From the NCBI GenBank assembly GCA_964514585.1, contig CAZETU010000003.1, forward strand, positions 80,813-144,812: a DNA stretch of 64,000 bases, read 5' to 3'. The notes beneath the pieces were generated by a model. The model did not search any database. It was not told where the DNA came from and saw only the letters and a program-made list of their open reading frames with translations. A program made the translations under genes and the position numbers. Below, in pieces: positions 7,506 through 44,909 of the stretch (the first letter of the stretch is position 1; each line of letters starts with the position of its first letter). This stretch comes from Candidatus Woesearchaeota archaeon. Its GTDB lineage: Archaea > Nanobdellota > Nanobdellia > Pacearchaeales > GW2011-AR1.

Positions 7506-7628
7506 CGCCCCAACCGGAGTCGAGACCTTTTTGGCATCTCTTAGGGACTGCGTTTAAATATCGAATATTTTTATTTATTGTTGAATTAGTGACGCTGTTG
7601 AACTTTTTAAGTATTGTCGAGGTTGAGT
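7506..7628 (+). repeat. Core-plus-promoter element E5 (CGCCCCAACCGG ... TAAGTATTGTCG)
   Basis: Core at 7506-7517. 7590-7628 matches 16263-16301 at 37/39 nt. The 16-mer ACGCCCCAACCGGAGT is shared with 19116-19131. Confidence 0.8.
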
Positions 7629-7630
7629 GG

Positions 7631-7650
7631 ACCGACAAGATTTATATATA
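7631..7650 (+). promoter_or_regulatory. Archaeal BRE/TATA promoter for the ars-like cluster
   Basis: ACCGACAAGA-TTTATATA, with the ATG at 7671 lying 30 nt after the TATA start. Confidence 0.65.
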
Positions 7651-7670
7651 TTGAAGATTATCAATATGTT

Positions 7671-8129
7671 ATGAAACATAAATATATGATTGGGGGCGTG
7701 GGAATTATAATATTACTACTTATTGTTTTTACAGTGCCCAAATATTTTGCGACGGCTGAGACCATTAATGGGAAGGTTGTCTTTGGAGAGATTAAAAAAG
7801 TTGAAATATACCATTTTCATGCGAATAGACAATGTTATTCATGTAAGACTATTGGAGAATACGCAAAAGAAACAGTAAATATTCACTTCAAAGAAGAACT
7901 TGATTCTAAAATAATAATTTTTGATTCAATAAATATAGATCTCCCGGAGAATAAAGAACTTGCAAGCAAATACGAAGCAAAGGGTTCTTCGTTGATTATT
8001 GGAACCTATTACAAGGATGGGAGCTTTTCAAAAGAAGAGGATACAGCAGTGTGGTACAAAATTGATAATAAAGAAAACTTTGTCTCTTATCTGAAGGGAG
8101 TAATTGAAACAAAGTTTGTTGAGGCATAA
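7671..8129 (+). CDS. arsF: ArsF-family thioredoxin-like protein with N-terminal membrane anchor
   Basis: HFHANRQCYSC CxxC motif and N-terminal hydrophobic helix. ATG 7671 is preferred over the ORF-track start 7614. Confidence 0.7.
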   Translation: MKHKYMIGGVGIIILLLIVFTVPKYFATAETINGKVVFGEIKKVEIYHFHANRQCYSCKTIGEYAKETVNIHFKEELDSKIIIFDSINIDLPENKELASKYEAKGSSLIIGTYYKDGSFSKEEDTAVWYKIDNKENFVSYLKGVIETKFVEA

Positions 8130-8130
8130 A

Positions 8131-8841
8131 ATGAGCTTGATGGCTTTCATGGGGTCCATGTCTGGAAGTAGTTTTCCATTAATTGCCGCATTTTTTATTG
8201 GGTTAATGACGGCTATAAGTCCTTGCCCCTTGGCGTCCAATATAACAGCTATAGCATATATTTCTAAAAAGATAGATAATGGGAAAAAGACATTAATCAC
8301 CGGATTCATATATACCCTTGGAAGAATGTTTACATACGTTCTTTTGGCAGGTTTAATTGTTTATATTGGCGTTAATGTAACATTAATCTCTTTATTTTTA
8401 CAAAAGTATGGAGAAAGAATTCTAGGTCCCGCGTTAATTTTTATCGGCCTAATAATGTTGAACATAATTAAATTACCAACCTTCAAAACAAGTGACAAAA
8501 TTAATAAAATAAAGGAGAATCTTTCAGAAAAAGGATATCTTGGTGGTTTTTTACTAGGTGTCTTCTTTGCTCTTGCCTTTTGTCCTTTTAGCGCAGTTCT
8601 GTTTTTTGGCATGTTAATACCTCTTGCAATTAACTACTCTGACGCTTTCTTAATTCCATCAATCTTTTCCATAGCAACCGGTCTCCCAGTAATTATTTTT
8701 TCTTTCATACTAACATTTAGTGTTTCAAAGGTAGGGAAAGTTATGAACAAAGTTCAAGTATTTGAGAAAGGAATGAGGTATGTTGTTGCAATATTATTTG
8801 TAATTATTGGAGGATATTATGTTATCAATGTTTGGTTATAG
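8131..8841 (+). CDS. arsG: ArsG-family / CcdA-DsbD-like membrane protein
   Basis: TAISPCPLASNI and FALAFCP motifs; about 6 TM segments. ATG 8131 follows the upstream stop. Confidence 0.72.
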   Translation: MSLMAFMGSMSGSSFPLIAAFFIGLMTAISPCPLASNITAIAYISKKIDNGKKTLITGFIYTLGRMFTYVLLAGLIVYIGVNVTLISLFLQKYGERILGPALIFIGLIMLNIIKLPTFKTSDKINKIKENLSEKGYLGGFLLGVFFALAFCPFSAVLFFGMLIPLAINYSDAFLIPSIFSIATGLPVIIFSFILTFSVSKVGKVMNKVQVFEKGMRYVVAILFVIIGGYYVINVWL

Positions 8842-8862
8842 TTAAATTAGGAGAGAAACAAA

Positions 8863-9093
8863 ATGGAGATAAAAATACTTGGAACTGGATGCCCAAATTG
8901 TGTTACTTTAGAAAAAAATGCAAAAACAGCATTGAAAGAACTTGGAATTGACGCAAGACTAAAGAAAGTGACCGACATAGTGAAGATTATGGAATACGGA
9001 GTTATGTCTACACCGGCAATTGTTGTTGATGAAGAGGTTAAGGCTTATGGAAAAGTCTGCACCGTTGATGAAATAAAGAAATTGCTGAGTTAA
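8863..9093 (+). CDS. arsE: Small redox-active disulfide protein (MTH895/ArsE thioredoxin-like)
   Basis: MEIKILGTGCPNC, YGVMSTPAIVVD. Confidence 0.85.
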   Translation: MEIKILGTGCPNCVTLEKNAKTALKELGIDARLKKVTDIVKIMEYGVMSTPAIVVDEEVKAYGKVCTVDEIKKLLS

Positions 9094-9175
9094 GATGAGC
9101 GATTTTTTTATCTATTTCAATTTTTATTAAATGAAAGAGAAAGAGTTTTGTTTAATGTGGAAGTGAGTAATAGGA

Positions 9176-9709
9176 TTATTCTAGTTCTTTTTTGATCATC
9201 TTATGGGCTGCGTTAATTTTTTGGAACATTTTGTGGTCTCCGCCCATGTCAGGGTGATGTTTTTTAGCTAGAGATTTATAATTCTTGGAAATTAATTCTA
9301 AGTCTGTTTCGTCTTCGTCAACACCTAGATTCTTTCTTGCTTCAGCTAGTTTTTCATCTATTTTATCGTCACTAGAAAATTCTCTTTGAAATTGGTCCAG
9401 TGTGATTTCTTTTTCGAATAATTGGTTTATGTAAATTTCTAGGATTTTGTCGATTACGTAAAGGTTGTCAATAAATCTTGGCATTTGAGAGTAGGCATAC
9501 TTTAGGTTTCGACCTTCGAACCAGAATGATACAGAGGCTTTTGCTTTCTTTTGGGCCATTTTTTCCATAGGGATATTTGCGTCATCACGCTCTATGTTTA
9601 GCTGCTTTAGTGTTGTAAAAATGTTATTTTGAACCTTAACGGCACGTCGATCAAATGAGTCCTTAAAGACTGGTTCTTCTAATTCGTATCCTTTTACCTT
9701 TAACATCAT
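9176..9709 (-). CDS. Protein with a C-terminal J domain
   Basis: YKSLAKKHHPDMGGDHKMFQKINAAH (HPD motif) at the C-terminus. Confidence 0.8.
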   Translation of the reverse strand: MMLKVKGYELEEPVFKDSFDRRAVKVQNNIFTTLKQLNIERDDANIPMEKMAQKKAKASVSFWFEGRNLKYAYSQMPRFIDNLYVIDKILEIYINQLFEKEITLDQFQREFSSDDKIDEKLAEARKNLGVDEDETDLELISKNYKSLAKKHHPDMGGDHKMFQKINAAHKMIKKELE

Positions 9710-9789
9710 AATATGTCAAAAATTCGGTTTATAAGTTTAAGCTATTGGGGAGTAGCAACTTTTATAAGGGAACTTTTAGAAATTTATAT

Positions 9790-10320
9790 ATGGATAAGAA
9801 GAAGAAAACTGAAAAGATGAAAACGGCTAAGGAATTTGTAGAGGAAACTATGGAAACTGTTAAATATCATAAGGTAGTTGAAGATGTTCCGGAAGTTGTT
9901 GGGGCTATAGTGGAGCCAAAGGTTGAGGTTAATTATATGGAGAAGTTTTTGAGGTTGCAGGCTGAGTTTGCTAATTATGAGAAGAGGACTGATAAAGAGA
10001 AGAGTGAAATTTATAGTAATGCTAATGCGGATTTGATTTTGCAGTTATTGGAAGTTTTGGATAATTTTGATTTGGCTTTGAAACATAATGAAGATTCTGG
10101 AGTGGCTATGATTCATGAGGATTTGTTTAGAGTTTTGGAGAAGCAAGGATTGATGGTGATTAAGACTGAAGGCAAGTTTTGTCCTCAATTTCATGAGGCG
10201 ATAGTGCAAGAAGAGAGTGAAGAAGACGGGGTTATTTTAGAGGAATTTCAGAAGGGATATTTATTGAATGGTAAACTTTTACGGGCCTCTAAGGTTAAGA
10301 TTAGTACTTCTAGAAAGTAG
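9790..10320 (+). CDS. grpE: Nucleotide exchange factor GrpE
   Basis: LRLQAEFANYEKR, LLEVLDNF, HEAI, KGYLLNGKLLRASKV. First ATG is at 9790. Confidence 0.93.
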   Translation: MDKKKKTEKMKTAKEFVEETMETVKYHKVVEDVPEVVGAIVEPKVEVNYMEKFLRLQAEFANYEKRTDKEKSEIYSNANADLILQLLEVLDNFDLALKHNEDSGVAMIHEDLFRVLEKQGLMVIKTEGKFCPQFHEAIVQEESEEDGVILEEFQKGYLLNGKLLRASKVKISTSRK

Positions 10321-10333
10321 GTGTTAACGGTGA

Positions 10334-10377
10334 ACCGAAATGTTTAAAAAACAAAGTATACACAAGTTTGTATACAC
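10334..10377 (+). promoter_or_regulatory. BRE/TATA promoter of dnaK followed by a GTATACAC direct repeat (putative operator)
   Basis: ACCGAAATGTTTAAAAA, then GTATACAC at 10356 and 10370. Confidence 0.5.
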
Positions 10378-10392
10378 GGAGATTAAAATAAT

Positions 10393-12264
10393 ATGGCAAA
10401 AATTATAGGAATTGATTTAGGGACGACATTTTCAGCGGTAAGTGTGCTTGAAGCTGGAAAGCCGAAGATTATACCAAATACTGAAGGGAATAATACTACT
10501 CCTAGTGTTGTATCTATTAATGGCGATGAAGTTTTAGTTGGTGAAGTTGCAAGGCGAGGAGCTGTTGCTAGTCCTAAGAATACTATTCGAAGTATTAAGA
10601 GAATTATGGGAACTAAGAAAATGACAAAGATTGATGATAAGGAATATTCTCCTGAGCAGGTTTCTGCAATGATTTTGACGAAGTTAAAGAAAGATGCTGA
10701 GGCTTATTTGGGTCATGAAGTAACTGATGCTGTAATTACTGTTCCGGCTTATTTTGGGGATGCTCAGAGAAATGCGACTAAGGATGCGGGTAAGATTGCT
10801 GGTCTTAATGTAAAGAGAATTATTAACGAACCAACAGCTGCGGCACTTGCTTATGGTTTGGAAAAAGATGATGATCATACAATTTTAGTTTTTGATTTTG
10901 GTGGTGGAACTTTTGATGTTTCAATTCTAGAGATTGGTGGTGGAGTTTTTGAAGTTAAGTCTACTGCTGGAAACAATGTCTTAGGGGGCGATGATATTGA
11001 TGATTTGATAATTGATTATTTAGTTGTGGAATTCAAGAAGGATAATGGAATTGATTTGAAAGAAGATTTGGTTGCACTGCAGAGGCTTAAGGAAGCTGCA
11101 GAAAAGGCTAAGATTGAACTTAGTTCAGCTACGAGTACGAAGATTACTATCCCATATATTACTTCAGATGATAAAGGTCCAAAGCATTTAGATGTTAATT
11201 TGACTCGAGCTAACTTTGAAAATATTTGTTCAGATTTTTTTGATAAGTTGAAGGGTCCAACACAGCAAGCAATTAAGGATGCTAAGTCTCCTAAGATTGA
11301 TAAGGTTATTTTAGTTGGTGGAAGTACACGGATTCCTAAGGTTCAAGAAATTGTTAAAGATATTACTGGAATGGATTCTGATAAGTCTGTAAATCCTGAT
11401 GAGGCTATTTCTTTAGGGGCTGCAATCCAGGGTGGAATTATTGGTGGAGACGTTAAGGATGTTTTGCTTCTTGATGTTACATCTTTGACTCTTGGAATTG
11501 AGACTCAAGGTGGACTAAGAGTTGCTTTGATTGATAGGAATACTACTATTCCAACCAAGAAGGCGGAAGTTTTCTCTACAGCTGCTGATAATCAGGATGC
11601 GGTAACAATTAATGTTTTACAAGGGGAAAGAGAAATGGCGAATGATAATAAGTCTCTTGGTAAGTTTGATTTGGTGGGGATTATTCCTGCACCACGAGGA
11701 GTTCCTCAGATTGAAGTTACTTTTGATATTGATACTAACGGAATTGTAAATGTTTCTGCAAAGGATTTGGGAACTGGTAAAGAACAGAAGATTACAGTTA
11801 CTGGTGGATCTTTGAGTGATGAAGAGATTGCGGATATGGTTAAGAATGCTGAGAAGTTTAAAGAAGAAGATGAGAAAAAGAAAGAAAAGATTATGATTGT
11901 AAATGAATCTGAGTCCTTGATTTATTCTACTGAGAAATTATTGAAAGAGCATAAAGATAAGGTTGACAAGGAAACAATTGGTAAGATTCAGGCTGGGCTT
12001 GATGAGTTAAAGGAAACTTTGAAGAGCGAGGATACTGAGAAGATTAAGGCAAAGCTTGAGGAAGTTAAGACTGTTGCTCAGGAACTTGGTGTTAAGATTT
12101 ACGAGCAGGCGGCTGCGGCGCAAGGTGGAGCTGAGGCTGAGGGTGATTCTAATATTGTTGATGCTGAAGTGGTTGAAGAGTCTGAGAAAAAGAAAGAAGA
12201 TGAGAAGAAAAAAGAGGAAAAGAATGAAAATGATTCTTCGGAAGATGAAAGACAAAAAGAATAA
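10393..12264 (+). CDS. dnaK: Chaperone DnaK (Hsp70)
   Basis: [61 protein letters not shown]. Confidence 0.98.
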
Positions 12265-12308
12265 TTTTGTTGCGACGAATTTAAAAGACTAAATGATATT
12301 TATCCATT

Positions 12309-13346
12309 ATGGCAAATAAAGATTACTACAAGATATTGGAAGTGAATAAAACTGATTCTATAGATGTTATTAAAAAAAGTTATAAGAAATTGGCCTTGAA
12401 GTATCATCCTGATAAGGCTACAGACGATAAGAAGAAAGATGCCGAGGATAAGTTTAAGGAAATTAATGAGGCGTATTCTGTTTTAAGTGATGAGGGAAAA
12501 AAGAGGCAGTATGATGCGGGTGGTGGAGCTAGCCAATTTAGGCAGAGAGGTGGCGGACAGAGCTATGGTGGATTTGGGGATATTTTTGGGGATATTTTTG
12601 GTGGTGGAAGCTTTGGAGAAGAGGGTCCTGATTTAGATTTGCATTATAGATTGGTGATAGATTTTATGGAAGCTATTAATGGTGTTGAAAAAGAAATCTC
12701 TATTAAGAAAGAGATTCCGTGTAAGAAATGTGATGGGTCTGGTTCTAAGGATGGTAAGTTTGATATTTGTAAGAGATGTAATGGTAATGGTAGAGTTGAG
12801 ACGATTCAGCAGACTCCTTGGGGTGCAATGCGTCGAGTAGTTAAGTGTGATGAGTGTGAAGGTGAGGGAAGAATTGCCAAGAATAAATGTTCTTATTGTA
12901 GTGGCAAGGGAATTGTGAGGAGTAGAGAGAAAGTTAAGATTAAGATTCCTGAGGGGATTGATAATGGGCAGACTATACGAGTTATGAATGGTGGGAATGC
13001 TATGAAGGGTGTTGCTAATGGTGATTTGTTTTTGCAGATTCAGGTTAAGCCGCATAAAGTTTTCAAGCGGGATGGGATTGATGTTTATATGGATTTTTCA
13101 ATAACGTTTGCGCAGGCTGCACTTGGTGATGAAATTTCTGTGCCTACATTAGATGAAGACGTTAAGATTAAGATTACTAAGGGAACTGAGTCTGGGAGTG
13201 TTTTGAGATTGAGAGATAAGGGTGTGCCAATTGTTAATAATCCTAGTTACAAGGGTGATTTGTTTGTTAATATTGTTGTAAAAACTCCTAAGAAGTTGAG
13301 TAGGGCTCAGGTGAAGTTGTTTAAAGAATTGAAGAAGTTGGACTGA
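12309..13346 (+). CDS. dnaJ: Chaperone DnaJ
   Basis: J domain (KYHPD), G/F region and four CxxCxGxG repeats. Confidence 0.97.
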   Translation: MANKDYYKILEVNKTDSIDVIKKSYKKLALKYHPDKATDDKKKDAEDKFKEINEAYSVLSDEGKKRQYDAGGGASQFRQRGGGQSYGGFGDIFGDIFGGGSFGEEGPDLDLHYRLVIDFMEAINGVEKEISIKKEIPCKKCDGSGSKDGKFDICKRCNGNGRVETIQQTPWGAMRRVVKCDECEGEGRIAKNKCSYCSGKGIVRSREKVKIKIPEGIDNGQTIRVMNGGNAMKGVANGDLFLQIQVKPHKVFKRDGIDVYMDFSITFAQAALGDEISVPTLDEDVKIKITKGTESGSVLRLRDKGVPIVNNPSYKGDLFVNIVVKTPKKLSRAQVKLFKELKKLD

Positions 13347-13411
13347 GGGGGATAACGGTTTGCGGATTTCATAGATTTTGAAAAAGTATTTTTATCTACT
13401 GTAAAATTTAT

Positions 13412-13440
13412 GCCCCAACCGATAGTAGTGGGGGAGTTTT
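13412..13440 (+). repeat. Core copy, sub-family B (GCCCCAACCGATAGTAGTGGGGGAGTTT)
   Basis: GATAGTAGTGGGGGAGTTT also occurs at 2478-2496; CCAACCGATAGTAGTCGGAGAGTTT occurs at 22219-22243. Confidence 0.75.
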
Positions 13441-13502
13441 TAAGAGCTGTTGGCTATTTGGACAAAGTAAACTATATAAACTAATTAGCCTAATTTAAAG
13501 AT

Positions 13503-14024
13503 ATGAATTTAAAAATTTCTGCATGGGCAGCAATTATTGCTGCAATTATTACAATTCCTGGTTTTATATTTGGGATGTTATTGTCAATAATTCCTGAAAA
13601 TAAAATAATTTATACTCTTTCGATGATTTCAGTGGTGGTTAGTATGTTGATAACAGTATTGTTATTTTTAGGATATATAAGAGTTGCAAAAAAGAATAAA
13701 TTAAAATTTCTAGAAGTTATGGTATATATCTCATTGATTATTATATTTATTTCTAAAATTTTTGTAATTTCTGTCAAAGGCGCTACAGTGTTTGACTTTA
13801 TTCTTCTGATATTGTTGGGTATTAACGGATTAGTTTTAGGAATTGCTTTTTTAAAATTAAAAAAAGTTTTTAATGGAATAGCTACTGCTATCGGTGTGAT
13901 GTATATTGTTGATGGCATTCTTATGATGAGTATAATAGGGGCGATCCTAATACCACTAACTCTAACTGCTGCAAGCATTTTAAAGGCAATATTTTTCTTT
14001 AGAGCAAGTAAAAAATATGACTAA
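13503..14024 (+). CDS. Hypothetical membrane protein (~5 TM)
   Basis: 173-aa ORF of successive hydrophobic segments. Confidence 0.75.
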   Translation: MNLKISAWAAIIAAIITIPGFIFGMLLSIIPENKIIYTLSMISVVVSMLITVLLFLGYIRVAKKNKLKFLEVMVYISLIIIFISKIFVISVKGATVFDFILLILLGINGLVLGIAFLKLKKVFNGIATAIGVMYIVDGILMMSIIGAILIPLTLTAASILKAIFFFRASKKYD

Positions 14025-14096
14025 ATGAGTTTTTTAAAATTACGCCCTTCAACTTCTCAAAAAAATAATAAAACAGCGTCGATAAAACTTCAAAAA

Positions 14097-14229
14097 CGTC
14101 CCAACCGGGGCTACTGGAGAGTGTCTGGGTTTCATGGGTGCTGGGATCCTTTTTCGTTTAGTTTAGATATCATTCGTGAGTGTGCGATGGAAGGATTTTA
14201 TAAATCTTGTCGGTCTACTTGTGGGTGAC
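14097..14229 (+). repeat. Core-plus-promoter element E1
   Basis: CGTCCCAACCGGGG core; 14113-14161 is identical (49 bp) to 15017-15065; ends TTATAAATCTTGTCGGTCTAC. Confidence 0.85.
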
Positions 14230-14315
14230 AGATTAATAGATTTTAGGGAAGAATTATGTTTTTAGTTTGATGGTGTTCTGCTATTAGTTACTTTCACTGT
14301 AATGAACATGACCCT

Positions 14316-14876: not shown

Positions 14877-14997
14877 GGGGTTAGTCGCCTATCCCCATGG
14901 TGTTAATTATTATTAATAGTAGATCGGGATTTATAAGGTTTGTCATTGGCATTCAACGCCCGGATTTTGAGAAAATGTAAAACAGCGATGGTATAAT

Positions 14998-15072
14998 TCA
15001 CGCCCCAACCGGCGTGACTGGAGAGTGTCTGGGTTTCATGGGTGCTGGGATCCTTTTTCGTTTAGATATCAT
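14998..15072 (-). CDS. Putative leaderless 24-aa micro-ORF (MISKRKRIPAPMKPRHSPVTPVGA) inside element E2
   Basis: ATG lies ~32 nt downstream of a minus-strand BRE/TATA (ACCGACAAGACTTATATA). The paralogous frame in E1 is broken by a 5-nt duplication. Confidence 0.3.
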   Translation of the reverse strand: MISKRKRIPAPMKPRHSPVTPVGA

Positions 15073-15130: not shown

Positions 15131-15177
15131 AATGGATGATCCCAAACTCTTAAATAATATTTAAATAGAAAAGTTAT

Positions 15178-35654: not shown

Positions 35655-38213
35655 ATGAAACTAGATAGCTTTCTAAGTAAGTATGGAAAAAAGATGGGCT
35701 ATTTAGAAATGGCGTTCTTTAAAAATATATATTATGAGGACTTGGGAGATGCTGGCCTGGAATTTATTACACCTGAAGTTGATATTGATAGGAATGACGG
35801 AACTGGTAGGAAGTGGAGAATAGACTTTGTTATTAAAACAAAGTTTGCCAAATACGCCATTGAATGTGATGGATTTAACTATCATGCCTCGGGAATGGTT
35901 TCTAAAGACAGAGATAATGATTTACACAATAAAAGGAATGAAACTATTAGGCAGGGATATATCTACACAGAGATTACAAGAGACCAGATTGTCCAAAATC
36001 CTTCAGATGCAATTTATCAGCTTAGAAGACTTTTTATTGCAGATGAAGAGCTATTCTCAATATTTCTTAATAGGAATAAAGGGCTAGTGTCGCCACATGA
36101 GGTTCAAGAAATTGCTTTGAATAAATTAAATGAAACTCGTTCGGCAGGAAAAAAGAAGGGTTTAGTTGTTTTGGCTACAGGTTTGGGTAAGACCTACCTT
36201 GGAGTATTTGATACTCGACAACTTAAATCAAAAAAAATACTTTTTATTGTTCATGTTGGGGAGGTTTTAAAGGATGCAAGAAATTCGTTTGAAGAGGTAA
36301 TGCCAGAAAGATCAAAGGAAATGGGATTTTTTACAGGCAAAGAAAAAGAATCTGGGAAAAATATAATCTTTGCCACGATTCAGACACTTAATCGAGAAAA
36401 AAATTTAAATCAATTTGACTCGGAGCAGTTTGACTATATTATTTTAGATGAAACTCACCATGGTGCAGCCCCTTCTTACAAACCTGTTTTCGAATATTTT
36501 AATCCTAAGTTCTTTTTGGGATTAACTGCGACTCCGGACAGAATGGATAATAAAGAAATTTTACCTTTTTACAATAATAATCTTGTATTCAAGATGGATC
36601 AGGATGAGGCAATTAAAAAAGGTTATTTAACTGGATTGAAATATCTTGGATTCAAAGACAATGTGGATTATTCTCAGATTTATTTTAATGGATTTAAATA
36701 TGATATTTCAGATTTAAACAAAGCTTTAATGATTGAAAAAAGAGATAGGGCCATAATAGAAAAATTCAAAGAGATGGGTGCTAATAAAAAAACAATAGGT
36801 TTCTGTGTTTCAATTGAGCATGCCGATTGGTGTGCAAAGAAATTTAGAGAGGTAGGTATTAATGCAATCTCGATACATTCTAAGCTTGACAGAAGTGAGC
36901 AGCCTATAGAAATGAGAGATCGTGATAAACTCATAAAAGGATTTAAAGAAGGGAAATATCAAGTTGCCTTTGTCGTAGATATGTTTAATGAAGGAGTAAA
37001 TTTCCCTGACGTAGAATGTGTTTTACTGCTTAGACCTACAGAATCTGCGACAATTTTAACACAACAGATTGGGAGAGGATTAAGAATTTCTCCGGGCAAG
37101 AAGGAAGTTTTAATATTAGATTTTATAGGAAATTATAAAACAGCTCATAATATCTTGCCCGCATTGGGCATTGGAGGGACGGGGGAATTAACCAAGGATA
37201 ATGAAAGAGATATATATTACTATGATAACAATGGGAGGAGGGTAGAATTTGAAAATGAAGTAGTAGAAATTTTCAAAATGATGCTAAGCAAATCGACTAA
37301 AAAAGTTAGATCTGAGGTATTAAGTAAAGAGTGGATGGAGTATGCAGATTACTTGGAAAAGTGGACGAAGGATAATCTTTACTGGAAAACAACTCAGCAA
37401 AATAGACATTTCCCAGTTCAGCTAGAGGGGCTCAATATTATCAAAAACAACCCTAGTATTTCTGAAGAGGATTTTAAAAACGAAGTTGGGAAAATCGTTG
37501 AAAAAAATTATCCCAACAAAACAATGACTGCAGGTTTTAGAGCATTAATGCTAAGCAAAATATCTGGGTTAGTTAGCTTGCGATCTCCTTTAAAGGTAAC
37601 CCCCGCCTTCCTTAAAATAAAAAAGATATGTAAGGGGAATTTTTCAAACATTGAAGAATATCAAGAAATTTTAACAAGTCAAATTGAGAAAATATTTTAT
37701 TGGAATATTATTTATGGTACCTTCAGTAAATATGTTCCTTCCGATGAAAGAGTATCGTACAAAGACTTTCATCTTTATCCCTTCTTTTTTCTCTATGAGG
37801 TATTGCTAAAGCTTATTGATGACTATGGGTACAAAGATGGAGAGTTAAGTAAATTGGAATTTAATTCCTTCTTGGCAATATCCAAGAATCAGGAAGAAGT
37901 AAATGAAACTTTAGAAAAAATCATCAATTTTAGAAATTATGAAGAGAAATACGAACTTGAAAAACTTTTAAATAAAAAAAATAACATTGATCCAAGATTT
38001 TTCAATATCCTCGCCTATAATAAGTATCTGATCATGACAAGGGATGGAGTAAAGTTAAACCAAAAACATATTCCTGAATTGAGAAAAAGAGTTTCAAAAT
38101 TTCTTTCTCTTATGAATTCAAAAAAATTAATTATGTTTAATGAGGAGTTACCCGAAAAATATTTGAAAATGTTATATTCTGAAAAGGACATCCTTTCTTA
38201 TCATGGAAATTAA
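35655..38213 (+). CDS. Nuclease (DUF559/Vsr-like)-SF2 helicase (ResIII-like)-putative DNA-recognition domain fusion
   Basis: RIDFVI..AIECDGFNYH; LATGLGKT, ILDETHH, GLTATP, FNEGVN, QQIGRGLR. The C-terminal YPFFFLYEVLLKL..LSKLEF resembles AlwI-type domains. Confidence 0.8.
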   Translation: MKLDSFLSKYGKKMGYLEMAFFKNIYYEDLGDAGLEFITPEVDIDRNDGTGRKWRIDFVIKTKFAKYAIECDGFNYHASGMVSKDRDNDLHNKRNETIRQGYIYTEITRDQIVQNPSDAIYQLRRLFIADEELFSIFLNRNKGLVSPHEVQEIALNKLNETRSAGKKKGLVVLATGLGKTYLGVFDTRQLKSKKILFIVHVGEVLKDARNSFEEVMPERSKEMGFFTGKEKESGKNIIFATIQTLNREKNLNQFDSEQFDYIILDETHHGAAPSYKPVFEYFNPKFFLGLTATPDRMDNKEILPFYNNNLVFKMDQDEAIKKGYLTGLKYLGFKDNVDYSQIYFNGFKYDISDLNKALMIEKRDRAIIEKFKEMGANKKTIGFCVSIEHADWCAKKFREVGINAISIHSKLDRSEQPIEMRDRDKLIKGFKEGKYQVAFVVDMFNEGVNFPDVECVLLLRPTESATILTQQIGRGLRISPGKKEVLILDFIGNYKTAHNILPALGIGGTGELTKDNERDIYYYDNNGRRVEFENEVVEIFKMMLSKSTKKVRSEVLSKEWMEYADYLEKWTKDNLYWKTTQQNRHFPVQLEGLNIIKNNPSISEEDFKNEVGKIVEKNYPNKTMTAGFRALMLSKISGLVSLRSPLKVTPAFLKIKKICKGNFSNIEEYQEILTSQIEKIFYWNIIYGTFSKYVPSDERVSYKDFHLYPFFFLYEVLLKLIDDYGYKDGELSKLEFNSFLAISKNQEEVNETLEKIINFRNYEEKYELEKLLNKKNNIDPRFFNILAYNKYLIMTRDGVKLNQKHIPELRKRVSKFLSLMNSKKLIMFNEELPEKYLKMLYSEKDILSYHGN

Positions 38214-38724
38214 AATAAAACTAGAAGATTCAGAAATTAAAAAATGTAGGGAGTTTGCAGAAAAAGTATTAGACGAAACATATAACCGATTTAATAAATC
38301 TGACAAGGAAAGAGTAGACAGAATTTTTTACGGGAAGGTTGGAGAGGTTGTATTTTTAAAGTTTCTAAATTCCAATAATATCTTTCCAGATGTTTCAGAT
38401 ATGTTTCAAATATTCGAAGGAGAAACAAATGTTGATAAATTTGACTTCAAAACTAAAGGGGATAAAACAATTGACATTAAAACTGCATATAAGCCCTATC
38501 ATAAAAGAATTCTTGTTCCTGAAGATCAATTTGAGGGGAATAAAAACAAGGATTATTATATTGGGATTATGATTGATGATTCATTAAAATATGGAGAAAT
38601 TCTAGGATTTTGCACTTGTGAAGATTTGAAAAAGAATGGCAAAATTAATTTTGGAGAGGGATTTGCATATTGGAAGTATTTATCTGATTTAGAACCTATA
38701 GAAAATTTATTAAAATTATTCTAG
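38203..38724 (+). CDS. Putative PD-(D/E)xK nuclease
   Basis: GKVGEVVF..DKFDFK..TIDIKT; translationally coupled to the helicase. Confidence 0.5.
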   Translation: MEIKIKLEDSEIKKCREFAEKVLDETYNRFNKSDKERVDRIFYGKVGEVVFLKFLNSNNIFPDVSDMFQIFEGETNVDKFDFKTKGDKTIDIKTAYKPYHKRILVPEDQFEGNKNKDYYIGIMIDDSLKYGEILGFCTCEDLKKNGKINFGEGFAYWKYLSDLEPIENLLKLF

Positions 38725-39831
38725 CCGAATTGATTTTTTGGCATTCTTTATAACCTCTGCCATAAAAAAGGCTAATTTCGGGGGAACGGCATTTCCTATT
38801 TGCCTATATATAGAACTCTTTGTACCTACAAATTTAAAATTATCTGGAAAACTTTGAATTCTAGCCCCTTCCCTTGGAGAGAGAGTTCTATTTTCAACTG
38901 GATGTATAAATCTTCCTCCAGAAGGAGTATCAAAACGAGTCGTGATTGTTGGAGCAATTCCATTTTTTTCAAGTCGACCGTATGACCCGCTATGAATTGA
39001 TTTGATATTTTCATCTAATTTAGTATAATTTTCCCCGGGGGATATCTTTTTTATTCTGTCCACTATTTGCTTATCATGAGTGGGTTTATTGTGATTTGAT
39101 GTTTTTTTTGTTGGGGATTCCAAAAATTCTTGATACTGATTATTCGGAATAAGCCCCTTAATATCTCCGATCAAATCTGCATTTTCCAAGTTAGATATAG
39201 CATCCCATACAGTTGTTTTATCAAAAAAATGAGGGTACATTTTTAGTATATCTGATTTGGTTTGCTCAATAATTTTTTCGAAATCAACAGCATTGTTCAA
39301 AGATCCCATAATAAAAACCCTTTCTCTCCCCTGAGGAATGCCAAAATCAGATGCCTTGAAAACACGATAGTAAGTATAATACTTATCTCCCCCTAACTTA
39401 TCCTTATCTTGAAACAATTCTAAAATAGTATTTAAGATCCTTCCTTTATCCATAGTCAATATCCCTTTAACATTTTCAAAAAGAAAAAAGGATGGCTTGA
39501 GTTGTCTCACTATTTCATAATATTCCTTAAAAAGATTATTCCTTGGATCTTCGATGAATCCCTGCCTTATTCTAGCCCCTGCCATAGAAAACCCCTGACA
39601 AGGAGGCCCTCCAATAATAATATCTGCGGGATAATTTTTTAAATTTTTATCCTCAGCTATTTTTTTTATATCTTCTACATAAAGTTTGACCCCTGGATGA
39701 TTTACTCTATAAGTCTCTGCGATTTGCTTATCATATTCAACAGCAGCAGAAATATTAAAGCCCGCCTTGGAAAACCCAACAGACAATCCTCCAACTCCTG
39801 CAAATAAATCAACCACATTAAGAGACTTCAT
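38716..39831 (-). CDS. C5-cytosine DNA methyltransferase
   Basis: DLFAGVGG, GGPPCQGFS, ENVKG, QGRERV, YRQIGNAVPP. Confidence 0.95.
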   Translation of the reverse strand: MKSLNVVDLFAGVGGLSVGFSKAGFNISAAVEYDKQIAETYRVNHPGVKLYVEDIKKIAEDKNLKNYPADIIIGGPPCQGFSMAGARIRQGFIEDPRNNLFKEYYEIVRQLKPSFFLFENVKGILTMDKGRILNTILELFQDKDKLGGDKYYTYYRVFKASDFGIPQGRERVFIMGSLNNAVDFEKIIEQTKSDILKMYPHFFDKTTVWDAISNLENADLIGDIKGLIPNNQYQEFLESPTKKTSNHNKPTHDKQIVDRIKKISPGENYTKLDENIKSIHSGSYGRLEKNGIAPTITTRFDTPSGGRFIHPVENRTLSPREGARIQSFPDNFKFVGTKSSIYRQIGNAVPPKLAFFMAEVIKNAKKSIRLE

Positions 39832-41615
39832 TTTAGATCCTCCTGTCCAGTTCGGTATCTTTCTTTATATTTTTTTATAAAGTTTATTTCGTTCGGTGTT
39901 AGTAAATATATCTTTCCAAGCTCCTCATCGATTTCATCAATAACATCTTTGCATTTCTTATGCTTATATTCATACATTGTTTGTTTGCTATCTATCTTTT
40001 CTTTTGTGTCTTCCAATTTTTTATCCAATTTTCTTGATAATTGGACTAGTTTATCTATAGACTTCCCCCCTATTTTAGGTACGGTAAAATTAAACAGTTC
40101 TTTTTTAGTAATGTGCCAACAGTCAGAAACCTTTATCCAAAACCACCAATACAAACTTGAATTAAAAATTGCATTCGCAATATGTAAATTATCCATAGTT
40201 AGTTTCATAGGAGTATATTCATTCAGTTTGTCTGGCTTAGTTAAAAAAGATTTAATCCAGAAAGCAGCCCTCTTATTAAGGTATAGTGTCTCTGAACCCT
40301 CTTCAAGGGTTAATAAGTTTTTTTCATAGGAATTTATTTTTGAAAAAATACTTAATTCCTTTACGTCTCCTAGTTTTGGATAAAATTCTGGAAAATTTGG
40401 ATTGTTTAGAATAAATTCATTTTCAAGAAATAGCTCCTTTCTTTCATTTTTATACCAATACTTATAATCTGAAGTAAATATTTTATGCCCTTCACCCTGC
40501 CCCTTCTTTAAAAAAAGAATATTTAATTTTTGATGCACTCCGGAAAATAAACAATCTGGACGATCATTATAGCTTAGGACAAATTGGTATTTTGATTGAC
40601 TTTCAACAAATTTTCTTAAACTTCCCATCCTTGCAGTTGATATATAAGATATCGGAATTATAAAGCCTAATACTCCGTGGGGTTTTAATATATTTAAGCT
40701 ATTGTGAATTGTATCTGCATAGGTATTACCGTATTTCATAATGTGACTGTCTTCTGTTTTTGTCTTTTCAACATAGGGCGGATTTCCTATTATTAGATCG
40801 AAAGATAAGTCGAAATTGCAATTAGAGATAAAATTTTTACTTGTAAAATTTTTATCTAATGTTCCCAAAATATTTTTAATATTGGAAGTTTTGCAAAAAT
40901 ATAAGCATTTAAATATAATTCTTATTTTTGAAATATAGGTTGAGTAGGGATCTAAATCATTTCCATGAAGGCTATCGATAATATCATCAATATTTCCAGA
41001 AGAAATTTTCCCGTTTATTTCATTGATTATATTCAATTTGATAGTTAGAACTTGTACCAAAAAGGCCCCAGTTCCGCAAGTTGGATCTAAAATTGAACTT
41101 TTCTGAATAAGATTAATTATCTCCTTTTGATTATTCTTTGAAAGACTAATAATTTTATGAATAATTTTATCTGGATGCTCCGGTTTAAATTTTAATTTAA
41201 ACTTATTAGTAATTAATTGAAAAATAGAATTATAAATTATAAAATCGGATATATCTTCAGGAGTATAATAAACTCCTTTTTCTCTTCGCTCTTGACCCTT
41301 CTCATTTATTTTCCCTAATTCAAATTGAAAATTAGACTCATCGAGATTATGGGAGGCTAGTAATAATATTAAATTTTGATAATAATTAAAATATTCTTTC
41401 TCTGGCTTGTTCTCTCCTAGTAGCAAAAGAAGGTCTCTAGGTGTTTTATGGATATTATCCATTAGGATTTTAACTTTAATTTGGTTGGTAGAATTATCCT
41501 CCTTAGAAAACAAGGATGTCAAAATATCAGAATGATTTAGATTAAAAAATTTCATAAGTTTCTTATCCTCATATTTCAATAGAGATTCTTTCTCCTTAAT
41601 TTTTAGATTCTGCAT
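39828..41615 (-). CDS. N6-adenine DNA methyltransferase (gamma class, Eco57I/TaqI-like)
   Basis: GVYYTP, LDPTCGTGAFL, IIGNPPY; 4-nt overlap with the C5 methylase. Confidence 0.92.
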   Translation of the reverse strand: MQNLKIKEKESLLKYEDKKLMKFFNLNHSDILTSLFSKEDNSTNQIKVKILMDNIHKTPRDLLLLLGENKPEKEYFNYYQNLILLLASHNLDESNFQFELGKINEKGQERREKGVYYTPEDISDFIIYNSIFQLITNKFKLKFKPEHPDKIIHKIISLSKNNQKEIINLIQKSSILDPTCGTGAFLVQVLTIKLNIINEINGKISSGNIDDIIDSLHGNDLDPYSTYISKIRIIFKCLYFCKTSNIKNILGTLDKNFTSKNFISNCNFDLSFDLIIGNPPYVEKTKTEDSHIMKYGNTYADTIHNSLNILKPHGVLGFIIPISYISTARMGSLRKFVESQSKYQFVLSYNDRPDCLFSGVHQKLNILFLKKGQGEGHKIFTSDYKYWYKNERKELFLENEFILNNPNFPEFYPKLGDVKELSIFSKINSYEKNLLTLEEGSETLYLNKRAAFWIKSFLTKPDKLNEYTPMKLTMDNLHIANAIFNSSLYWWFWIKVSDCWHITKKELFNFTVPKIGGKSIDKLVQLSRKLDKKLEDTKEKIDSKQTMYEYKHKKCKDVIDEIDEELGKIYLLTPNEINFIKKYKERYRTGQEDLK

Positions 41616-41806
41616 TTTTATTTTCTCCTTTTAATTCAGATTTCATAAAATTATCTACTTTTCTTGAAAGAATTATTGCATTTTTCTCACAATATTCTTT
41701 GTATTCATCATAGATTTCCTCATCAAGGCTCAATGCAACAGTTTTTCTACCCATATGGATTCATATGGGTTTTAGTTTATAAATCTTTTGGAAAATTTAG
41801 GGCAAT

Positions 41807-43285
41807 TTATTTTAATTCGTTTTGCAAACCCTTAACAATCTCAACCTCTGCCAAAGTATCCAATTCACAATATTTCTCCAAAGCATCTCGAATCTTTTGC
41901 CTTTCCTCCTCACTAACAGAAGAATCGTAAGTAACCCTTTCATATTCATAACTAGCCTGATCCCCTTTCTTAACATCTTTCAAATTTTTATAACTCAAGT
42001 CCGACATTACAGGCAGAACTGCCTTAATACTTGCACTTCCACATTGTTTCGGATCATAATAATGAAAATTCCTAAAAACATCCCATAAGTCTTTTATCCT
42101 TGACAAAATATTTTCATCATACCATTCTCTAAATTCAGGAAATGCCGTTGCAGACTCGTTCATAACGCCTTTTTCAAACCCCTGATTATAGACCAAAATA
42201 CTTCCAGAGTCGCCTAAGTTATCTCTTAATGATTGCATAAATTTAGGTCGAGGATCATCAGTTCCATCAGCTAAAAAAGAGATATGCTCAACTTCTCCAC
42301 CTTCTTCTTTTTGAATATGCAAACTAAACTGAAAAGGTATTCTTTGGTATGGATTCATCCCATCAAACTTAGGCAAAATAGGATTTATTGTCTCAAAATC
42401 TAAATAATAAATTGGATATTCTAAATTTCTCAGAAAATTATTAATCTCAGTTTTATCTATATGTTTTCCTCCGTCATGAGCCAATCTTCTTTGTATTTGT
42501 TGTTTTTCATTTAGTTTTGTGCTTTCAGGAACATCAGTTAAGCATACAATTCCTCCATTATATAATTCGAAACATTTCTTCTTTAACATTCGATAAAAAT
42601 CAAATATACTATTTTCAGGAACTTCGTCCCAACATTCATCCTTAATTGGACAATCATAAGGGTCTGCACATGAAGGACTTATGTTACAAGTAGGTTCTTC
42701 TTGAGAATTAATAACCTTTATCATTTCTTCAATGTTAGACTCGACGTATTTTGAAAATTCTTTAATATTTTCAGTAATTTCAGTTTGAATAAATAATTCT
42801 TTTGGCTCAATTTGACCATTAAGGCAATATTGGTTATTAATATGCATTAAGAAACACTTTCTAATTTTAAGTCCATATTTCTCATAAATATATTTTTGAA
42901 ATGATACGTCGTGCAAATTTACATCTTTAACCTTAGTTGCACTTTTAACTTCAATAATATCCCATTCATCTTTTCCAACAGGAACTAAAATATCTGCCCT
43001 AGAATATAAATTATCAACCATAAATGCAGGTTCAAATAAAGGAATTCTTTTTTTTATTAATTTCTTAGTGTTTTCTAAATTCTCTTTAAAATTTTCATCG
43101 GGAATATTTTCTCCTTCGGGAAAAACTTTCTTAGCTAACTCTCCAACAACATGACCGTCATCGAATTTCTTTTGAGCTAATTCATCAGGTTCAGGAAGTC
43201 GCCTCTTGTCGTTAATTTTAACCCATAATAATTTTGGGCATTGTAGCCCTAGTAGGTAACTTGATTTTGATAGTAGCTTTGGCAT
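41807..43285 (-). CDS. DUF2779-family protein (Cas4/RecB-like nuclease + DEDD/RNase H-like domain), paralogue 1
   Basis: QCPKLLW, RADIL..IIEVKS, C..PYDC..C, YYLDFET, PFQFSLH, SASIKAVLP, YCELDT. Confidence 0.8.
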   Translation of the reverse strand: MPKLLSKSSYLLGLQCPKLLWVKINDKRRLPEPDELAQKKFDDGHVVGELAKKVFPEGENIPDENFKENLENTKKLIKKRIPLFEPAFMVDNLYSRADILVPVGKDEWDIIEVKSATKVKDVNLHDVSFQKYIYEKYGLKIRKCFLMHINNQYCLNGQIEPKELFIQTEITENIKEFSKYVESNIEEMIKVINSQEEPTCNISPSCADPYDCPIKDECWDEVPENSIFDFYRMLKKKCFELYNGGIVCLTDVPESTKLNEKQQIQRRLAHDGGKHIDKTEINNFLRNLEYPIYYLDFETINPILPKFDGMNPYQRIPFQFSLHIQKEEGGEVEHISFLADGTDDPRPKFMQSLRDNLGDSGSILVYNQGFEKGVMNESATAFPEFREWYDENILSRIKDLWDVFRNFHYYDPKQCGSASIKAVLPVMSDLSYKNLKDVKKGDQASYEYERVTYDSSVSEEERQKIRDALEKYCELDTLAEVEIVKGLQNELK

Positions 43286-43346
43286 AAAAGATTTAGGGCT
43301 AAGTAGCTTATAAAATTATTTATAAACTATCAAATCATATCTTATT

Positions 43347-43592
43347 ATGATACTAGGAATAATCGGACTTATTTTAATTGCAGTTGCATGGCTTCCACAA
43401 ATAATCGAAACAATTAAAACTAAGAAAAGTGGATTAAACATTAAATTTGCATTAATTTATGTCATCGGCTCTTTCGTATTAGTAATCTATTCAGTTCAGA
43501 TAAAAGATACGGTTTTCTTAATACTAAACTCTCTTGCAACACTTATGAGTTTTACAGGATTGTTTTATACAATCAAGTATCAAAAGAAATAG
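43347..43592 (+). CDS. PQ-loop / SemiSWEET-like small transporter
   Basis: AWLPQIIETIKTKKS; 3 TM segments; 81 aa. Confidence 0.75.
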   Translation: MILGIIGLILIAVAWLPQIIETIKTKKSGLNIKFALIYVIGSFVLVIYSVQIKDTVFLILNSLATLMSFTGLFYTIKYQKK

Positions 43593-43606
43593 GTGCTTGG
43601 AATTGT

Positions 43607-44755
43607 TCAACTAACAACCCCTTCAATCTGACTAGCTAATTTTTCAAATTTAGCCATATTTATTTCCATTAATTCCATTCTTTCTTGCAAGATTTCATTT
43701 TGTCTTTTTGTTGAATTCAACTCTTTTTCTAATTCTGTTTTAGTCGTGTCTATTAGCATATCCTCTTCTGAAATCGTATCCCTCATTCCTAATAGTTCGC
43801 TGTAATAATGTATTTTATCGCTTTTTTTCCAACCGAATCTATATTTAAGAGCTGATTCACTTTTATAACGAGGCATCCAATAGCAACAAGCACAATGCCT
43901 AAAATCATACATGGTTAGATTGCAGTACTTTTCTCCTGCAGGAGAAACTCCTTCTCCAAAAAGTTTCCTAGCTGTGTTTTTTATAACTCTATTTACATTA
44001 TATGGCTTAAATGTAAATAAATAATCATGAAGCTCCAGTTTTTCTTCCCTAATATATCGTTTGATTAGGTCAGAAGATAACATTAACTTTATTCTTCTAC
44101 CAAAAGTTTTACTTATCTCATCTCTTATGTGAACTTCCTTAAAGTCGTTATGAAGGTCTGAAATTTTAATATTAATTAATTCGGTCGGGGCTCTAATTCC
44201 AGTATCAAACAAAAACATAATCATCGTCCTATATTTGAAAGTGGATTTATCGCAAAAACTTCTAACCTGATCTTCTGTTAAATATACCCATTTTGGTTTA
44301 TCCCGTCTAACGTCTAAATCGATTGTGATATCTTCAACGGTGACACCTTCTTTTCTATTCACTTTAATCCACCAATGCCAAAATGATTTGAAGGCTTTCC
44401 CATAAGTGTCTATTGAGGCATAGATTTTACCATCTTCCCTAGAGACTTCCCCTGTTCTAATTTTGGAAAAGAATACTATGATTTGATCCTCAGTTATTTT
44501 GGTAATATCATCAAGTCCAAATTCATCTTTAAACCTTTTAGAGAAAAATATCATTTTTTGTCTCAATGTGTTCAATCTAATAAAACTTCTCGGACCTTTT
44601 GAACTTCTTGAAGAAACATTTCTCCCGACCTCCATGTCTCCGACATATCTTAAAGTTAAATCAGAATTTACTTTACTAATCCCTGGAACGCCGTCTTTTA
44701 CTGCTATTTTCCAAGCATGGTATTTTTCCTTGTGTTTGTATGGATCTCTTTTCAT
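43607..44755 (-). CDS. Tyrosine recombinase/integrase (paralogue 2)
   Basis: FDTGIRAPTEL, SKT, YDFRH, RFGW..IHYYS; visibly homologous to 17895-19022 throughout. Confidence 0.9.
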   Translation of the reverse strand: MKRDPYKHKEKYHAWKIAVKDGVPGISKVNSDLTLRYVGDMEVGRNVSSRSSKGPRSFIRLNTLRQKMIFFSKRFKDEFGLDDITKITEDQIIVFFSKIRTGEVSREDGKIYASIDTYGKAFKSFWHWWIKVNRKEGVTVEDITIDLDVRRDKPKWVYLTEDQVRSFCDKSTFKYRTMIMFLFDTGIRAPTELINIKISDLHNDFKEVHIRDEISKTFGRRIKLMLSSDLIKRYIREEKLELHDYLFTFKPYNVNRVIKNTARKLFGEGVSPAGEKYCNLTMYDFRHCACCYWMPRYKSESALKYRFGWKKSDKIHYYSELLGMRDTISEEDMLIDTTKTELEKELNSTKRQNEILQERMELMEINMAKFEKLASQIEGVVS

Positions 44756-44891
44756 TGTCTGAAAAGCAAACACTATTTATTAACATCGAGGTTTTGCACA
44801 GGTACCTTATGGGTATCTTACAGGTGTCGTTTAGAAGTCAGAGTTTTGTTTTTCCGCTTGAAAGCTCATCGATTATGCTCCAAGTGGGTTA

Positions 44892-44909
44892 CGCCCCAAC
44901 CGGGGGCTA
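44892..44909 (+). repeat. Core copy upstream of integrase 2 (CGCCCCAACCGGGGGCTA)
   Basis: Matches the E1 core CGTCCCAACCGGGGCTA; 137 bp from the integrase ATG. Confidence 0.8.

Follow-up and report, generated by a model that had tools for sequence, protein, structure and literature searches.

A probable tRNA-Asp-anchored accretion island, unusually rich in small integrase-less modules, in a DPANN archaeon

Genomic islands that are anchored at tRNA and tmRNA genes by tyrosine integrases can be recognized by the Islander signature (PMC4383910). Comparable arrangements include the tycheposons of Prochlorococcus, the mobility of which has been demonstrated experimentally (bioRxiv 10.1101/2020.12.28.424599), and the cis-mobilizable elements (CIMEs) and site-specific accretion of ICEs (integrative conjugative elements) and IMEs (integrative mobilizable elements) in streptococci (reviewed in PMC5704250). 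Tandemly integrated elements and the loss of the integrase after integration are known from archaea (reviewed in PMC8371274), where integrons with IntI and attC also exist (PMC9668308). Here, we analyzed a stretch of 64,000 nucleotides, called the window, from a Candidatus Woesearchaeota archaeon (assembly GCA_964514585.1, contig CAZETU010000003.1, positions 80,813 to 144,812), in which modules of one to many genes are separated by a short core repeat and accompanied by two related tyrosine integrases. The window represents the last 64 kb of this contig (C3) in an assembly of 1.04 Mb that consists of 18 contigs, is about 90% complete, and has a full-length match to the archaeal small subunit rRNA model. 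We estimate a probability of about 0.85 that the region is an accretion island anchored at tRNA-Asp and built by the insertion of mobile elements, because the core corresponds to the end of tRNA-Asp, the tRNA gene is located at the predicted place, and a third integrase of the same family is located beside it.

A scan of the window for the 10-nucleotide core GCCCCAACCG identified seven exact copies, at positions 7507, 13412, 15002, 15905, 19118, 25394, and 44893, and one copy with a single mismatch at position 14098. All eight copies are on the plus strand and none on the minus strand; 0.46 copies would be expected by chance, and no shuffled sequence out of 100 attained nine matches. The positions agree with those in a first-pass annotation of the window, made from the sequence alone, once its leading C is counted, and the lists of open reading frames (ORFs) and the strand scan uphold its statement that the cores are directly oriented and always intergenic. 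As 12-nucleotide units, the cores occupy positions 7505–7516 (ACGCCCCAACCG, the reverse complement of the last 12 nucleotides of tRNA-Asp plus one base), 13410–13421 (ATGCCCCAACCG), 14096–14107 (ACGTCCCAACCG, with one mismatch), 15000–15011, 15903–15914, 19116–19127, 25392–25403 (exact over the 10-mer), and 44891–44902, and are here numbered from 1 to 8. Core 2 is part of a 34-bp site (13408–13441; ATTCCAACCG followed by GATAGTAGT and further bases), of which there are four further occurrences on contig C9. The partial copy that had been reported near position 22219 is real and represents a degenerate version of this site (22218–22251, plus strand), and a further half-site is located at positions 2478–2493, to the left of the range that was first described (7506–44909). 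ARAGORN identified no tRNA genes in the window, and the idea that core 8 at position 44891 is a degenerate tRNA was rejected since it has neither an acceptor 5' strand nor a T-loop.

In genomes of the same genus, tRNA-Asp(GTC) has as its 3' end the reverse complement of the core, CGGTTGGGGCG(T). The 11-mer CGGTTGGGGCG was found at 73 places in 21 of the 41 genomes searched, including this one, as compared to 6 for the reversed control, and it is present in 19 of 24 genomes of the same genus versus 1 of 16 outside the genus. In the relatives, it is often repeated on one strand of a single contig. ARAGORN predicted a tRNA-Asp(GTC) ending in CGGTTGGGGCG at nine of the 19 first loci of the relatives, and the remaining copies bear the same families of flanking sequences, here called arms, as the cores in the window. 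In the core, the 3' end of tRNA-Asp(GTC) with its G discriminator is copied as an att-type site, in line with the tRNA-Asp-like 3' end with a G discriminator that the first-pass annotation had read from the reverse complement.

The prediction for the cognate tRNA gene was a location right of the window and on the minus strand. A look-up of the last protein in the window retrieved the metagenome contig ena:ERZ27315522:k141_169111 (L057), which matches window positions 50269–64000 without mismatches over 13,732 nucleotides and extends beyond the end of the window. This contig contains a gene for tRNA-Asp(GTC) on the minus strand at positions 20353–20424, corresponding to window-equivalent positions 70621–70692, and the predicted gene is thus located 6.6 kb beyond the window. 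A gene for a 401-amino acid integrase is situated 47 nucleotides from the 3' end of the tRNA. As in Islander-type islands, there is an intact tRNA gene at one end, the 3' end of which equals the repeats, displaced 3' fragments are placed in direct orientation at the element boundaries (eight copies, all on the plus strand), and a tyrosine integrase with catalytic residues is encoded beside the tRNA/att site.

Integrase 1 (17895–19022, plus strand) is a tyrosine recombinase of 375 amino acids with its 3' end toward core 6, and its stop codon is separated from the core by 95 bp. Integrase 2 (43607–44773, minus strand; 382–388 amino acids; Pfam PF00589, E=3e-10) reads away from core 8, from which its start is separated by 137 bp (ATG, 382 amino acids) or 119 bp (GTG), and this orientation matches that of the tRNA-proximal integrases on contigs C1 and C2. 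The two proteins are 52% identical, and the 401-amino acid integrase is 39–47% identical to both of them and to the integrases on C1 and C2. At least five full-length proteins of this family are thus encoded in the organism: integrases 1 and 2, the 401-amino acid integrase, and two at tRNA-Gly and tRNA-Tyr. The putative catalytic residues R, K, R-H, W, and Y, as read from the alignment, do not vary among six members of the family. A protein search returned more than 2,300 relatives with generic annotations. Relatives are listed under archaeon, Nanoarchaeota, or Pacearchaeota names, and the only relative with a solved structure is XerA from Pyrococcus (4A8E, E=0.004).

These proteins also bear on the suggestion that the array is a classical integron, or a cluster of attC sites lacking an integrase, with an IntI-type integrase and promoterless cassettes bounded by attC sites as in Archaea (PMC9668308). 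In integrons, attC sites are imperfect palindromes 57–141 bp long with a fold in the single strand, and the cassettes are transcribed from the Pc promoter adjacent to attI. The layout is similar, with repeats in the same orientation, units of one or two genes, and a cargo of toxin-antitoxin and defense genes, and the motif CCCAAC resembles the inverse core RYYYAAC. However, integrases 1 and 2 score only 21.5 and 23.3 bits against the NCBIfam model TIGR02249, which has a cut-off of 265, and we rejected the classical integron on these scores. Furthermore, the repeat equals a tRNA 3' end and the anchor is a tRNA gene rather than attI, no hairpin-forming inverted repeat was found either around four cores (seed 6, length 8) or in a fold of 14 arms, and a single Pc promoter cannot serve genes on both strands (the NYN, AbrB-like, and HEPN/MNT genes on the minus strand, and the RelE-like and membrane protein genes on the plus strand). 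Taken together, a classical integron is barely conceivable.

Comparisons with related genomes reveal where the homology ends. In G013 and G018, an ortholog of integrase 1 (72–74% DNA identity) abuts an intact tRNA-Asp gene. The alignments of the window to these two genomes span the end of the integrase and the arm and halt at core 6; past the core, G013 and G018 continue into the body of the tRNA and the window continues into the next module. The homology thus breaks exactly at the core, which is where breakpoints in relatives had been anticipated, and this supports the tandem accretion of cassettes at one site that was proposed in the first-pass annotation. Mini-elements with an integrase of type 1 are present with differing cargo in three genomes, and those in G018 and G013 carry an HEPN/MNT pair or a 404-amino acid protein rather than the CapRel-like gene that is found here. 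In G013, the integrase-1 element comes immediately after the NYN module, whereas a RelE/AbrB module intervenes in the window. The HEPN/MNT pair is core-adjacent also in G015 and G018, although in the opposite orientation. In G015, the tRNA-Asp gene is followed by three elements of 22–24 kb, and the spacings between cores are bimodal, with sizes of 0.14–6.3 kb and 19.5–24 kb. The order of the modules and their cargo vary between genomes. The 35 ORFs from the small modules of the relatives represent a diverse cargo that includes metabolic enzymes, with NYN proteins, methyltransferases, inosine monophosphate dehydrogenase, adenylosuccinate synthetase, Fic, GNAT, and P-type ATPase among them.

An arm of about 130 nucleotides comes after each core, and the arms belong to a few homologous families. 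Their conservation between genomes is limited to about 45 nucleotides beside the core (14 copies, nine genomes), which contain a CACCCAT box that resembles an inverted core. The arms are 80–91% identical between genomes versus 70–74% for genes in the same region, in a comparison that is biased toward arms detectable by BLAST. The same arm sequence is located 3' of the intact, intron-bearing genes for tRNA-Gly(TCC) and tRNA-Tyr on contigs C1 and C2, where the integrase paralogs begin 100–160 nucleotides after the tRNA, and exact 12-nucleotide copies of the ends of tRNA-Tyr and tRNA-Glu recur beside homologous arms. By analogy, the core in the window was expected to be the reverse complement of a tRNA 3' end. 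Contigs C1, C2, C6, C7, and C10 also contain exact 12-nucleotide copies of the 3' ends of tRNA-Leu (two extra copies, at +95 and +190 nucleotides), tRNA-Arg, tRNA-Thr (two genes), and tRNA-Ser, either close to the respective genes or at a distance from them, and the targeting of tRNA 3' ends is therefore general in this genome.

In the 18 contigs of the assembly, there are 15 exact copies of the 10-mer GCCCCAACCG. Two of these, on contig C2, are in coding-looking DNA without an ORF call and were judged from their context to be armless, and one, on contig C10, has no recognizable arm, while the remaining copies are located within mobile-element regions. The arms are relevant also to the idea that the cores and arms are a small RNA, a terminator, or an operator for gene regulation that is unrelated to recombination. 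TATA-like boxes are present about 95 nucleotides from several cores in this genome, a short hairpin is possible around some cores, and a T-run follows some copies. Yet, scans of the window and five other loci against Rfam identified no family at the cores or arms, the sole match being to a partial tRNA at the end of contig C9, and the consensus fold of 14 arms has only four invariant pairs (-3.3 kcal/mol) and no covariation. Moreover, the conservation between genomes covers about 45 nucleotides and stops short of the TATA region, and the core equals the end of tRNA-Asp and marks the homology breaks. A role in regulation only is therefore very improbable. A 13-8-13 palindrome fits the site copies on contig C9 but is weak in the copies in the window.

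For the accretion island, we propose that a single DPANN-specific family of tyrosine integrases would recombine sites on incoming elements with the last 12 nucleotides of tRNA-Asp(GTC), CGGTTGGGGCG plus T. Every insertion would restore the end of the tRNA and deposit a 12-nucleotide copy at the far junction, and subsequent insertions could use either the tRNA or any of the displaced copies. Repeated insertion would in this manner have stacked at least ten modules over about 68 kb, with all copies in the same orientation. Three modules remain as complete elements, one of 25.7 kb by the tRNA, an ICE-like element of 19.5 kb, and a mini-element of 3.2 kb, and one module of 0.9 kb is a deletion derivative with an integrase stub. 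The other modules (0.7–6 kb, one to seven genes) have kept the core and about 45 nucleotides of the arm but no integrase. In this they are similar to CIMEs, and the resident integrases might be able to mobilize them. We infer from this arrangement that the recombination is catalyzed by these integrases, and likewise where the crossover lies, in which order the insertions took place, and that the integrase-less modules may continue to move.

Several observations weigh against the accretion island. The tRNA-Asp gene is known from the identical, overlapping metagenome contig and not from this assembly, in the 18 contigs of which neither ARAGORN nor Infernal identified it. Integrase 1 reads toward its core and integrase 2 away from it, so that the elements are not uniform, and the comparison of the arms has the bias mentioned above. 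The DnaK block to the left is inverted in comparison with G015, which is not explained by simple site-specific integration. In the population, 17 stretches were retrieved out of 27 on record for contigs that carry integrase 1 or 2, representing at least eight samples. All 17 match the window at 99.9% identity or more and have the same order of modules, the sole difference being one 18-nucleotide indel, and no circle junction, empty site, or structural variant was found among the retrieved contigs. There is thus no sign of an ongoing turnover of cassettes, and any current mobility of the integrase-less units is putative. A search for an empty tRNA-Asp site flanked by the left genes of the window gave no result; the gene for the PyrCDK fusion is rare in the genus, and the DnaK block is found in other contexts elsewhere.

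Module 2 (13422–14095, 0.69 kb) contains a single gene for a 173-amino acid membrane protein (plus strand), module 3 (14108–14999, 0.90 kb) contains an NYN-domain gene (14316–14876, minus strand) amid two arm units that are 80% identical, and module 4 (15012–15902, 0.90 kb) contains a ParE/RelE-like gene (15178–15489, plus strand) and a MazE/AbrB-like gene (15481–15753, minus strand). Each of them is located between cores with arms. A tblastn search for integrases in these three modules identified nothing except a stub in module 4 (15722–15823, minus strand; E=2.7e-5 against integrase N-termini), which covers roughly the initial 34 codons of a gene from the same integrase family. The stub is placed beside core 5, at the position where an intact integrase would start. 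At the DNA level, it shares 82% identity with the start of the intact integrase next to tRNA-Asp in G015 and 89% with the corresponding stub in G013. Judging from this retained 34-codon stub, module 4 is a deletion derivative of an integrative element. Like CIMEs, the small modules are flanked by att sites and have no integrase or transfer genes, while an origin by deletion was found for one module only.

In the region to the left of the NYN orthologs in G012, G011, and G062 (loci L070, L071, and L074), we observed a conserved, GC-rich, non-coding stretch of about 170 nucleotides that is apparently structured and may be an RNA gene.

How the small units came about can be viewed in two ways. 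They may themselves be mobile, excised as small circles by the resident integrases and captured singly at the tRNA-derived cores, in which case the array would be a functional analog of an integron with integrase-less units of one or two genes, and an active platform rather than a graveyard. Small core-bounded units (0.58–5 kb) recur in many genomes of the genus, and in G007 one such unit abuts the intact tRNA directly. In G009, where the contig ends, the tRNA is followed by an arm of an integrase-less type, and different genomes share a distinct arm type that has no integrase. The arms are also better conserved than the cargo, which is diverse. Moreover, the NYN unit has the same arm at an Asp core here and in G013 and at a tRNA-Tyr core in G059. 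However, among the 13 NYN orthologs elsewhere, only the one in G013 is likewise located between two Asp cores and only the one in G059 beside a Tyr core, while ten have neither an Asp nor a Tyr core within 1.5 kb. The protein identities of HEPN, MNT, and NYN (66–78%) are similar to those of DnaK (76–80%), which fits a long residence, and homologous recombination between similar arms could yield the same shuffling. Since the unit with the integrase stub would have arisen by deletion in place, and since the array does not vary among the contigs retrieved from the population, an active platform of this kind is possible but doubtful.

The other view is that only elements with an integrase insert, and that the small units are inert remains of internal deletions, now fixed in the chromosome. 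The integrase stub is as expected from such decay, as are a remnant of an NYN promoter at positions 16020–16156, the degenerate sites at 2478 and 22222, and the invariance of the array across samples, and the loss of integrases after integration is documented for archaeal elements (PMC8371274). On the other hand, seven of the eight cores are exact, the arms are 80–91% identical where neutral DNA should be unrecognizable, and units with an arm type that is never seen beside an integrase adjoin the tRNA in relatives. We therefore treat the decay of all small units as a tentative explanation that is rather unlikely. With regard to the gene-capture platform inferred in the first-pass annotation, the tRNA-derived att core and the tandem accretion stand, but an integron-like capture platform is not established. 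The integrases are not IntI, the sites are derived from a tRNA and are probably not attC, and the genes are present on both strands with upstream regions of their own. At least one integrase-less unit is a deletion derivative, and the array is the same in all of the 17 stretches.

The accretion island is wider than first described and extends from about position 2478 to the tRNA at about 70.6 kb. It is about 68 kb long, which is about 6% of the assembled genome, contains at least ten modules, and is bounded by a CoA-ligase/GNAT gene and tRNA-Asp. The contents of the modules as described in the first-pass annotation are upheld by Pfam, which identified NYN, ParE/RelE and MazE/AbrB, RelA_SpoT, HEPN and nucleotidyltransferase, beta-helix, type IV secretion system (T4SS) pilin/VirB4, and methylase domains. 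The gene in the left flank (3–2357) encodes an ATP-grasp/CoA-ligase-GNAT protein, and the left-most junction is placed 120 nucleotides past this gene, where the half-site GATAGTAGTGGGGGAG (2478–2493, plus strand) corresponds to the spacer plus the right arm of the 34-bp type. Module 0 (2494–7504, about 5 kb) contains genes for an HAD hydrolase and two fusion proteins at positions 3293–7503, PyrE-PyrF with 476 amino acids and PyrC-PyrD-PyrK with 889 amino acids. Homologs of the triple fusion were found in only 3 of 40 genomes of the same genus, and pyrimidine synthesis therefore looks like a cargo of the island.

Module 1 (7517–13409, 5.9 kb) has no integrase and consists of an arm (7517–7686) that is homologous to the arms beside the tRNA-Tyr, tRNA-Glu, and tRNA-Gly cores, and genes for a 171-amino acid protein, a DsbD-like protein, thioredoxin, a J-domain protein, and GrpE-DnaK-DnaJ. 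The block with the J-protein, GrpE, DnaK, and DnaJ (9176–13346) is located between two direct cores. DnaK was found in 15 of 24 genomes of the genus, while the 16 genomes from elsewhere in the order had none. The gene at positions 3–2357 has an ortholog in G015 that abuts dnaJ with no pyr genes in between. A simple inversion between cores was ruled out as the cause of the orientation of this block since both flanking cores are direct; recombination between mirrored arms could have produced it.

Downstream of the small modules, module 5 (15915–19115) is the 3.2-kb mini-element, which consists of an arm, the NYN-promoter remnant, a copy of the last 12 nucleotides of tRNA-Tyr (16178–16189, minus strand, GGGTGGGGGGAT) with its own arm, the CapRel-like gene, and integrase 1. 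The tRNA-Tyr 12-mer and its arm are a fragment of a tRNA-Tyr-type array and show exchange between arrays. The CapRel-like gene with its RelA_SpoT domain (16623–17702) is the only cargo of this element and has no adjoining antitoxin gene. Module 6a (19128–22217, 3.1 kb) contains the HEPN (19171–19677) and nucleotidyltransferase (19664–20272) genes, both on the minus strand, and a gene for a secreted protein of 545 amino acids. It is followed, after the degenerate 34-bp site, by module 6b (22252–25391, 3.2 kb), which encodes a beta-helix surface protein (adhesin) of 997 amino acids.

Module 7 (25404–44890, 19.5 kb) is ICE-like, with genes for MT-A70, a T4SS pilin, a VirB4/TraG-like ATPase, a helix-turn-helix regulator, a helicase-nuclease, m5C and m6A methylases, DUF2779, and integrase 2. 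The T4SS-like operon (28722–34180) encodes a TrbC/VirB2-type pilin (PF18895) and a PrgI-VirB4/TraG-like ATPase of 974 amino acids, while no relaxase or coupling protein was recognized by Pfam in this module. A paralogous element is located at tRNA-Tyr, from the end of contig C2 to the start of contig C3, where there is also a paralogous operon. Module 8 (25.7 kb, of which the first 19.1 kb, at positions 44903–64000, are in the window) contains genes for HNH, DUF2779, GmrSD, a type I restriction-modification system (hsdMSR), Schlafen/AlbA_2, and a TSP3-repeat protein, and runs past the window via a resolvase and small ORFs to the 401-amino acid integrase and then tRNA-Asp(GTC). The last part (L057:13635–20305), with a serine resolvase, about ten small co-oriented ORFs, a ribbon-helix-helix protein, and the integrase, looks like the plasmid- or virus-like core of the element nearest to the tRNA. 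The two DUF2779 genes (41807–43285, minus strand, and 46450–47934, plus strand) are 71% identical in DNA and form an inverted pair of 1.47 kb that surrounds integrase 2 and core 8, with one gene in each of the neighboring elements.

The assembly itself breaks at att regions. The end of contig C2 overlaps the start of C3 by 55 nucleotides, so that the T4SS genes become continuous with tRNA-Tyr and its integrase, the end of C5 (tRNA-Glu plus arm) overlaps the start of C9, and the end of C7 (the 5' part of a tRNA-Glu) overlaps the end of C9. Contig C15 (3.5 kb) has a GC content of 52% as compared to 31–39% for the other contigs and no rRNA, and may be foreign or mis-binned.

In DPANN archaea, the genomes are tiny and the gaps in metabolism large, and the acquisition of genes is poorly understood. 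The cargo of the island includes restriction-modification and toxin-antitoxin systems, a T4SS element, and a surface adhesin, as well as the GrpE-DnaK-DnaJ operon and the fused pyrimidine-synthesis genes, which are missing from most relatives. A speculative extension, which we consider unlikely, is that tRNA 3' ends across this genus and its allies serve as docking sites for a cassette system that has converged on integrons, with units captured in trans. The integrase-less units of 0.6–6 kb, with the 12-nucleotide tRNA-derived core and about 45 nucleotides of conserved, mirrored arms, would then be excised and captured by the previously undescribed integrase family with its more than 2,300 relatives. 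Through such a system, genomes otherwise without them would receive genes for defense, chaperones, and nucleotide synthesis. If the small units are mobile, they would represent a simple recombination system with a 12-nucleotide target that is experimentally accessible, and genes could flow among uncultured archaea by this route; if they are immobile, the locus is a clear but ordinary tRNA-anchored island.

Our literature searches identified no description of such arrays in DPANN archaea. Integrons are alike in outline, with a site-specific tyrosine recombinase, sites in the same orientation, and short accessory units with toxin-antitoxin and defense cargo, but the island has no IntI or attI/Pc and no recognizable attC, its sites are derived from a tRNA, and its genes are on both strands with their own upstream regions. 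The analogy is valid for the layout only, and the island is outside the integron family. As in the tandem elements of other archaea, tyrosine integrases target tRNA genes, integration is in tandem, and modules are exchanged, although the review of those elements (PMC8371274) mentions neither DPANN nor this integrase family. The CIMEs and accreted elements of streptococci, of which ICESt1/ICESt3 is an example, are similar in that att-flanked, integrase-less units are placed in tandem with an integrase-bearing element, conjugative there and ICE-like here, and at least one unit arose by deletion. Here, however, the host is an archaeon, a tRNA gene serves as the anchor, the number of units per array is much larger, and mobilization together with a neighboring element is putative.

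Tycheposons also consist of cargo elements at a few tRNA genes in a streamlined genome, where new arrivals push older ones inward, fragmented integrases and partial tRNAs are scattered, and the cargo is metabolic or defensive. They differ in that the integrase family in the island is unrelated, replication modules are missing, there is one T4SS element and many units of 0.7–3 kb, and mobility has been shown by experiment for tycheposons, whereas the island is known from its sequence. Islander islands are similar in architecture, with an intact tRNA at one end, direct displaced copies of its 3' end, an integrase by the tRNA, and elements in tandem. In contrast to these, the block of identity covers only 12 nucleotides at the extreme 3' end, at least ten modules are stacked at one tRNA, most of the modules are without an integrase, and the host is a DPANN archaeon with a genome of about 1 Mb. 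Tandem islands at tRNA genes are thus known, and the distinctive feature of this one is that it is unusually rich in small integrase-less units.

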